DNA of 64,000 bases from Escherichia coli O127:H6 str. E2348/69 (lineage in GTDB: Bacteria > Pseudomonadota > Gammaproteobacteria > Enterobacterales > Enterobacteriaceae), in the NCBI RefSeq assembly GCF_000026545.1, contig NC_011601.1, one strand, 5' to 3'. Shown here piece by piece: positions 17,405 through 17,742 of the stretch. A model generated the notes under the pieces. It made no database searches. It was not told the origin of the DNA and saw nothing but the letters and a program-made list of their open reading frames with translations. The number at the start of each line of letters is the position of its first letter. Positions within the stretch are counted from its first letter, which is position 1. Both the position numbers and the translations under genes were made by a program.

Positions 17405-17742
17405 GCTATTTTTGATAGTTCATGCGGATAATATGCTCTATATAGTGATGTTCCGATGACTTATGACTATATGGGGCAAATATGGTTACGCCAGTAAGCA
17501 TCAGCAATTACATATCTCTTCCTGATGATTTTCCCGTTCGTAATATTGCACCTCAAGTAAAAGAAGAACAGGCCCCCTTCCTGATCGTCATTAAAATGTG
17601 ATGTTAACAACTCTCTGATGCGTGACAGAACAACCGTCAGAGAGATGGAAATGCGATCCAGATCACAAATGCATTGTATTCACATCATTAACCGTTTTAA
17701 GATCATTTCATCACTTTTTCGCAACTCACCCGATAATCTGTT

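Follow-up and report, generated by a model that had tools for sequence, protein, structure and literature searches.

The stretch of DNA analysed here (the window) comprises 64,000 nucleotides of Escherichia coli O127:H6 str. E2348/69 (NC_011601.1). Within it, the gene for the LysR-type putrescine utilization regulator, yneJ (ptrR), and the gene for the L-arabinose/sugar efflux transporter, ydeA, lie next to each other with a spacer of 338 bp (17405-17742), which extends from the yneJ stop codon, ending at 17404, to the ydeA start at 17743 (Table 1). An earlier note on this DNA had described a spacer of about 340 bp devoid of any ORF of meaningful length, and this description holds: in the ORF list the longest frames touching the spacer encode 47 (on the minus strand), 44, 42 and 39 residues, and a 77-aa ORF at 17622-17855 is merely an out-of-frame overlap with ydeA. 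In K-12, yneK (1,116 bp, 371 aa) separates the two genes, in the order and at the approximate size of 370 codons that the note had given, and the reservation that yneJ and ydeA might be adjacent in K-12 as well does not apply. The interval is identical in another record of the strain, as the query 16900-18300 (1,401 bp) matches the E2348/69 record NZ_CP059840.2 at 100% identity.

The neighbours of the yneK slot, yneJ/ptrR and ydeA, are the same in the window, in K-12, in four other E. coli loci and in E. albertii. Both are intact in the window, ydeA with a dN/dS of 0.01 relative to K-12 that denotes strong constraint, and we infer normal function for the two genes. No Rfam match fell inside the spacer in a scan of the whole window, and a consensus scan of the spacer for promoters and terminators called no terminator and 2 promoter-like sites, where chance alone would give 1.5.

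Table 1. Features of the yneJ-ydeA interval in the window
Feature	Position	Strand	Basis
yneJ (ptrR), LysR-type putrescine utilization regulator, intact, 293 aa	16523-17404	+	ORF list; RefSeq annotation of E2348/69; NCBIfam NF047711 PtrR, 487.9 bits
yneJ-yneK intergenic region, 77 bp, kept	17405-17481	+	Lies in 162-nt left block, 157/162 identical to K-12
5' remnant of yneK: ATG, codons 1-28 and one extra base (85 nt)	17482-17566	+	Translation MVTPVSISNYISLPDDFPVRNIAPQVKE, equal to K-12 YneK residues 1-28
Frame-shifted remnant ORF, 39 codons: 28 YneK residues and 11 new ones (EQAPFLIVIKM), TGA at 17599-17601	17482-17601	+	
Deletion junction, left homology ending at 17566	17566-17575	.	Two-register comparison and affine-gap alignments
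3' remnant of yneK: final ~20 nt with the old stop TAA (17592-17594), out of frame	17575-17594	+	Aligns with K-12 locus L002 4679-4698
Hairpin just 3' of the old yneK stop, kept	17611-17644	+	RNA fold -17.8 kcal/mol, z -3.9
ydeA upstream region, kept, near-identical to K-12	17649-17742	+	93/94 identical to K-12 locus L002 4754-4847
ydeA, L-arabinose/sugar efflux MFS transporter, intact, 396 aa	17743-18933	+	ORF list; RefSeq; NCBIfam NF002921, 667 bits

Remnants of yneK in the spacer

Homology to K-12 is gapless from the yneJ stop to 17566 (157/162 positions) and picks up again at 17567-17575, where it corresponds to the last 20-28 nt of K-12 yneK. The net loss relative to K-12 amounts to 1,004 bp and lies wholly inside yneK, of which codons ~29 to ~364 (~335 of 371) are missing. 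The 5' remnant matches positions 1-33 of the 371 positions of the NCBIfam YneK model (48.3 bits), and the bases of the 3' remnant are those that encode the C-terminus ...DLPERH* in K-12. Since 1,004 bp is not divisible by three, the frame of the 5' remnant runs on for 11 new codons to a TGA. The statement of the earlier note that there is no yneK here is correct in that no intact gene is present and needs amending in that both ends of the gene persist, the 5' remnant being the yneK pseudogene of RefSeq (PGAP locus H4J01_RS12290, 102 bp, window 17482-17583). The remnant ORF occupies the chromosomal slot of yneK and lacks the full-length match to the equivalog model NF033404, to which K-12 YneK aligns over positions 1-371 with 813.7 bits. 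The marks of a pseudogene formed by internal deletion are all found, namely both ORF ends colinear with K-12 yneK, an outgroup that has the gene, and loss of coding capacity. With its two ends out of frame with each other, yneK is a dead gene in this strain, and no YneK can be made from the copy in the window.

The exact breakpoints are ambiguous. In a MAFFT alignment of short and long alleles the long gap was put wrongly, at the right-hand edge, and two-register and affine-gap pairwise comparisons were used instead. On these, the loss consists either of 1,003 bp together with a 1-bp downstream indel or of 956 + 47 + 1 bp. The latter reading makes use of the 8 nt at 17567-17574, AACAGGCC, as an island matching K-12 yneK ~70 nt 5' of its stop (yneK nt 1042-1049); filler or diverged sequence are the other readings of these bases. 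To the right of the junction, the 74 bp at 17575-17648 agree with K-12 at 60/74 positions only (81%), against 93/94 just downstream. At several sites of this stretch the window sides with E. albertii and not with K-12, yet the stretch is identical in both carrier lineages described below.

Direct repeats at the endpoints of the intact allele, the signature of a repeat-mediated deletion, were not found: no repeat of at least 8 nt pairs the K-12 sequence around L002 ~3660-3670 with that around ~4620-4680, and a clean slippage mechanism is accordingly unsupported. At most, an imperfect GAA(G/A)AA microhomology at the endpoints was spotted by eye. Equivalents of the hairpin that follows the old stop codon fold in K-12 (-23.7 kcal/mol, z -5.7) as well as in E. 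albertii (-22.1 kcal/mol, z -4.6). For want of a T-run, the hairpin does not qualify as a canonical intrinsic terminator, nor was it picked up in the terminator scan.

Taken as a whole, the spacer is very probably the scar of one old deletion of about 1 kb from inside yneK. A single deletion would have taken codons ~29 to ~364 and left in place the promoter region, both ends of the gene, the hairpin and the ydeA upstream region, and the out-of-frame joining of the two ends would have killed the gene.

Direction, frequency and history of the deletion

A homologue in E. albertii NBRC 107761, placed between the same two neighbours, aligns with residues 1-371 of YneK at 68% amino acid identity. 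Combined with the pieces of either ORF end that survive in the spacer, this homologue shows the short allele to be derived by deletion and not ancestral. The copy of NBRC 107761 itself (locus L008, 3001-4116) is interrupted at codon 86 by an in-frame stop, and an intact 380-aa albertii-type protein is represented by a cluster (P0010) of 224 member sequences. One could imagine instead that the short allele is ancestral and that yneK was inserted, or born, in K-12-type lineages, as might befit a taxonomically restricted orphan that has no Pfam domain and yields 22 clusters in 5.8 billion proteins, all from Escherichia or Shigella. An insertion would not, however, leave behind in-register codons 1-28 or the terminal ~20 nt that contain the old stop, and the full-length E. 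albertii homologue occupies the same slot, a recent transfer from E. coli to E. albertii being unlikely at 68% amino acid identity and a dS of 1.16. An ancestral short allele is thus extremely improbable. The prospect of an assembly or sequencing artefact peculiar to this genome is practically negligible, as 1,115 complete genomes, assembled independently of one another, share the junction and no point in favour of an artefact was found.

A search with E. albertii yneK for divergent intact E. coli alleles nearer to the scar returned ordinary alleles only, at ~77% identity. In a GTDB genome scan for YneK, the sole matches were E. albertii and a contaminated MAG, and the E. coli representative genome was absent; we take this representative to be a B2 type strain, which would explain its absence. 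The MAG is recorded as "MAG: Caldithrix sp. CR04bin15", and its 31-kb contig (SMXE01000224.1, our locus L007) encodes a YneK that is 100% identical to that of K-12 at the amino acid level, almost certainly through E. coli contamination of the bin.

The indel polymorphism that the earlier note had suggested for this site is borne out by the comparison with K-12 and other E. coli genomes that it had proposed, with the net difference of 1,004 bp confined to yneK and two alleles among 5,426 complete E. coli genomes. The short allele was detected in 1,115 of them (20.5%) with a 130-bp probe spanning the junction, at a query coverage of at least 80%. The missing segment, represented by a 981-bp internal probe, is present in 4,302 genomes, in 4,263 of these at a coverage of at least 80%, and 21 records match this probe in the band of 80-90% identity. 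Both alleles add up to 5,417 genomes, and the flanks were found in 5,419.

The carriers belong to two backgrounds. One, which shares at least 99% identity with the window, accounts for about 1,040 genomes and includes Nissle 1917, ATCC 25922 and O2:K1 avian pathogenic (APEC) strains. The second background, dominated by poultry isolates and represented by two loci (L005 and L006), comprises about 71-76 genomes, of which 71 are at least 99% identical to L006, among them APEC O2-211 and O78:H4 strains. The genomes of E2348/69, Nissle 1917 and ATCC 25922 type presumably belong to phylogroup B2, and ST117 to phylogroup G, which we take to be the sister group of B2. APEC O2-211 is of ST117 (PMC6256689). 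The counts of ~1,040 and 71-76 genomes fit the total of 1,115 on the notion of a marker of B2 and G, with putative group labels drawn from strain names and from PMC6256689 (ST117). Flanks at least 99% identical to the window occur in 1,042 genomes, which closely matches the number with that type of junction, and these matching totals, as opposed to a genome-by-genome comparison, give no sign of an intact yneK in the window-type background; all genomes near-identical to the window at this locus would then carry the scar. The scar is in this sense an ordinary lineage-marking pseudogene. In one carrier of the second background, E. coli JNEC-KY177 (L005), the annotation treats ydeA, too, as a pseudogene lacking its C-terminus (L005 2237-3424), and a substitution lies at the equivalent of window position 18932, within the ydeA stop codon.

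The junction is base-for-base identical in three carrier alleles from the two backgrounds (the window, L005 and L006). Its identity, which includes the oddly diverged stretch, points to one origin, so that a single deletion event would lie behind all carriers. Recurrence of the deletion at a hotspot in both lineages might seem in keeping with the frequent loss of yneK elsewhere, which has been hit otherwise by IS1 insertions, by truncations in Shigella sonnei and by the stop codon of the E. albertii type strain. Nevertheless, the two backgrounds have the same junction to the base, including the diverged stretch AACAGGCCCCCTTCCTGATC, the surrounding 184 bp show no difference at all, and there is no repeat of at least 8 nt to drive such an event, which together make independent recurrence highly unlikely.

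How the scar came to be in both backgrounds is a separate matter. Between the window and L006, 72 of 2,417 flanking sites (2.98%) are different, as against 0 of 184 in the segment spanning the junction (17557-17740), for which a rough Poisson estimate gives P ~0.004. In the flanks, the distance between the two carrier backgrounds is about the same as that of either from K-12. The lack of any difference in the junction segment, set against 2.98% in the flanks, suggests that this segment has a more recent shared ancestry than the flanks, and simple vertical inheritance fits this pattern of divergence poorly. A short tract bearing the scar of one deletion may have moved from one carrier lineage to the other by homologous recombination, in place of being passed on by common descent. 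Both the contrast between flanks and junction segment and the distance between the carrier flanks speak for such a transfer, while later recombination could equally have overwritten the flanks after vertical inheritance, and a single stretch of 184 bp is a small sample in a sequence along which mutation rates vary. We consider transfer a real possibility, if one that falls somewhat short of probable. Under the single old deletion favoured here, the scar would have reached the window-type background and the ST117-containing lineage either by shared descent or by such short-tract recombination.

Regulatory context and other features of the window

In K-12, gSELEX tables list binding peaks of NtrC and of the RpoH-holoenzyme in the spacer between yneJ and yneK, and a peak of the RpoS-holoenzyme near the 5' end of yneK (PMC8743547, PMC5493296). 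The predicted yneK promoter presumably lies in the 77-bp region kept upstream of the 5' remnant. The deletion brings this region to within ~260 bp upstream of ydeA, with one weak hairpin in between. Hypothetical read-through from the yneK promoter region into ydeA is conceivable, at a low probability. It is tempting to speculate that the scar is more than a neutral loss, either by placing ydeA under nitrogen or stress control in its carriers or by giving rise to a new 39-residue peptide, in which case the zero divergence at the junction would reflect selective spread by recombination; we hold this to be unlikely.

Several other parts of the window bear on strain-specific gene content. A match to the retron msr RNA (Rfam RF00170, 79.9 bits) at 5529-5593 (+) is directly followed at 5660-6061 (+) by a gene annotated "reverse transcriptase domain-containing protein" with a product of just 133 aa, and the two may represent a retron with a truncated reverse transcriptase in an island beside hipBA. 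The same island includes, at ~1259-4663, two ABC-three-component-system genes and a gene for an ATPase of the AAA family, a candidate anti-phage defence system, and a site-specific integrase fragment (6428-6574) adjoins hipA. At 8004-9335, tam directly adjoins hipB. In K-12, the lsr autoinducer-2 operon is, as we assume, located beside hipB. The lsr operon appears to be missing here and would be another lineage-specific gap; K-12 gSELEX tables give ydeU, ydeK and lsrK after hipB (PMC5493296). Further downstream, the dcp-dgcZ spacer contains short annotated fragments of 2-oxo-tetronate isomerase and YdeI (24820-25028) and forms another deletion scar, similar in kind to that of yneK. A full-length match to the Hfq-binding sRNA STnc560 (Rfam, 281.9 bits) is located beside mgtS/mgtT at 23451-23664 (-); we take it to be the MgrR sRNA and an expected feature.

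The lost gene and its known relatives

YneK is confined to a narrow group. None of its 22 homologous clusters falls below 68% identity to the K-12 protein, all names given by the sources of these clusters are Escherichia or Shigella, and the same taxonomic restriction was reported in an independent study (PMC12757027). A Pfam search of YneK detected no domain; a match to DUF1140 was below threshold (E 0.16) and was discarded. The AlphaFold2 model of the protein, built from an alignment of 9 sequences, is poor (mean pLDDT 48, pTM 0.45). Between K-12 and E. albertii, dN/dS is 0.17 for yneK, 0.05 for yneJ and 0.03 for ydeA, the value for yneK being that of a genuine coding gene under purifying selection which is weaker than that on its neighbours. 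Independent IS1 insertions split an otherwise intact yneK in several E. coli genomes (records H35, H101 and H161), and truncated YneK products of Shigella sonnei are found among the protein clusters. Such repeated inactivation suggests that yneK is dispensable in many settings. About one fifth of complete E. coli genomes manage without this Escherichia-only orphan, which fits its repeated inactivation elsewhere.

On its own the scar matters little. It provides an easily scored presence/absence marker that sets genomes of the E2348/69, Nissle and ATCC 25922 type and the ST117-type lineage apart from other E. coli. A pan-genome association study connected the presence of yneK with adherence to cells of the bovine recto-anal junction and could offer no explanation (PMC11540155). 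Because presence or absence of yneK tracks lineage so closely, population structure is, in our view, likely to lie behind this association, and pan-genome links between yneK and phenotypes may reflect lineage structure and not the function of YneK.

The scar is already on record as a partial yneK pseudogene in RefSeq, in E2348/69 as well as in other carriers. H4J01_RS12290 and its equivalents in Nissle 1917 and ATCC 25922, described as "yneK, incomplete, missing C-terminus", are the same object as that analysed here; the annotation covers the 5' fragment only and says nothing of the 3' remnant, of how much was lost or of how the loss is distributed. A literature search found no paper on the yneK deletion itself. 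With the intact K-12 gene (b1527, UniProt P76150, NF033404 "putative protein YneK") the window copy shares the slot, the start codon, the first 28 residues, the last ~20 nt and the downstream hairpin, whereas it lacks ~335 of 371 codons and has its ends joined out of frame. The other known lesions of yneK, i.e. the IS1 insertions, the Shigella sonnei truncations and the stop codon of E. albertii NBRC 107761, are likewise independent inactivations of the same orphan. They differ in being insertions, truncations or a nonsense mutation, seen among the listed matches in single records or separate clusters, whereas the deletion of the window extends throughout two backgrounds.
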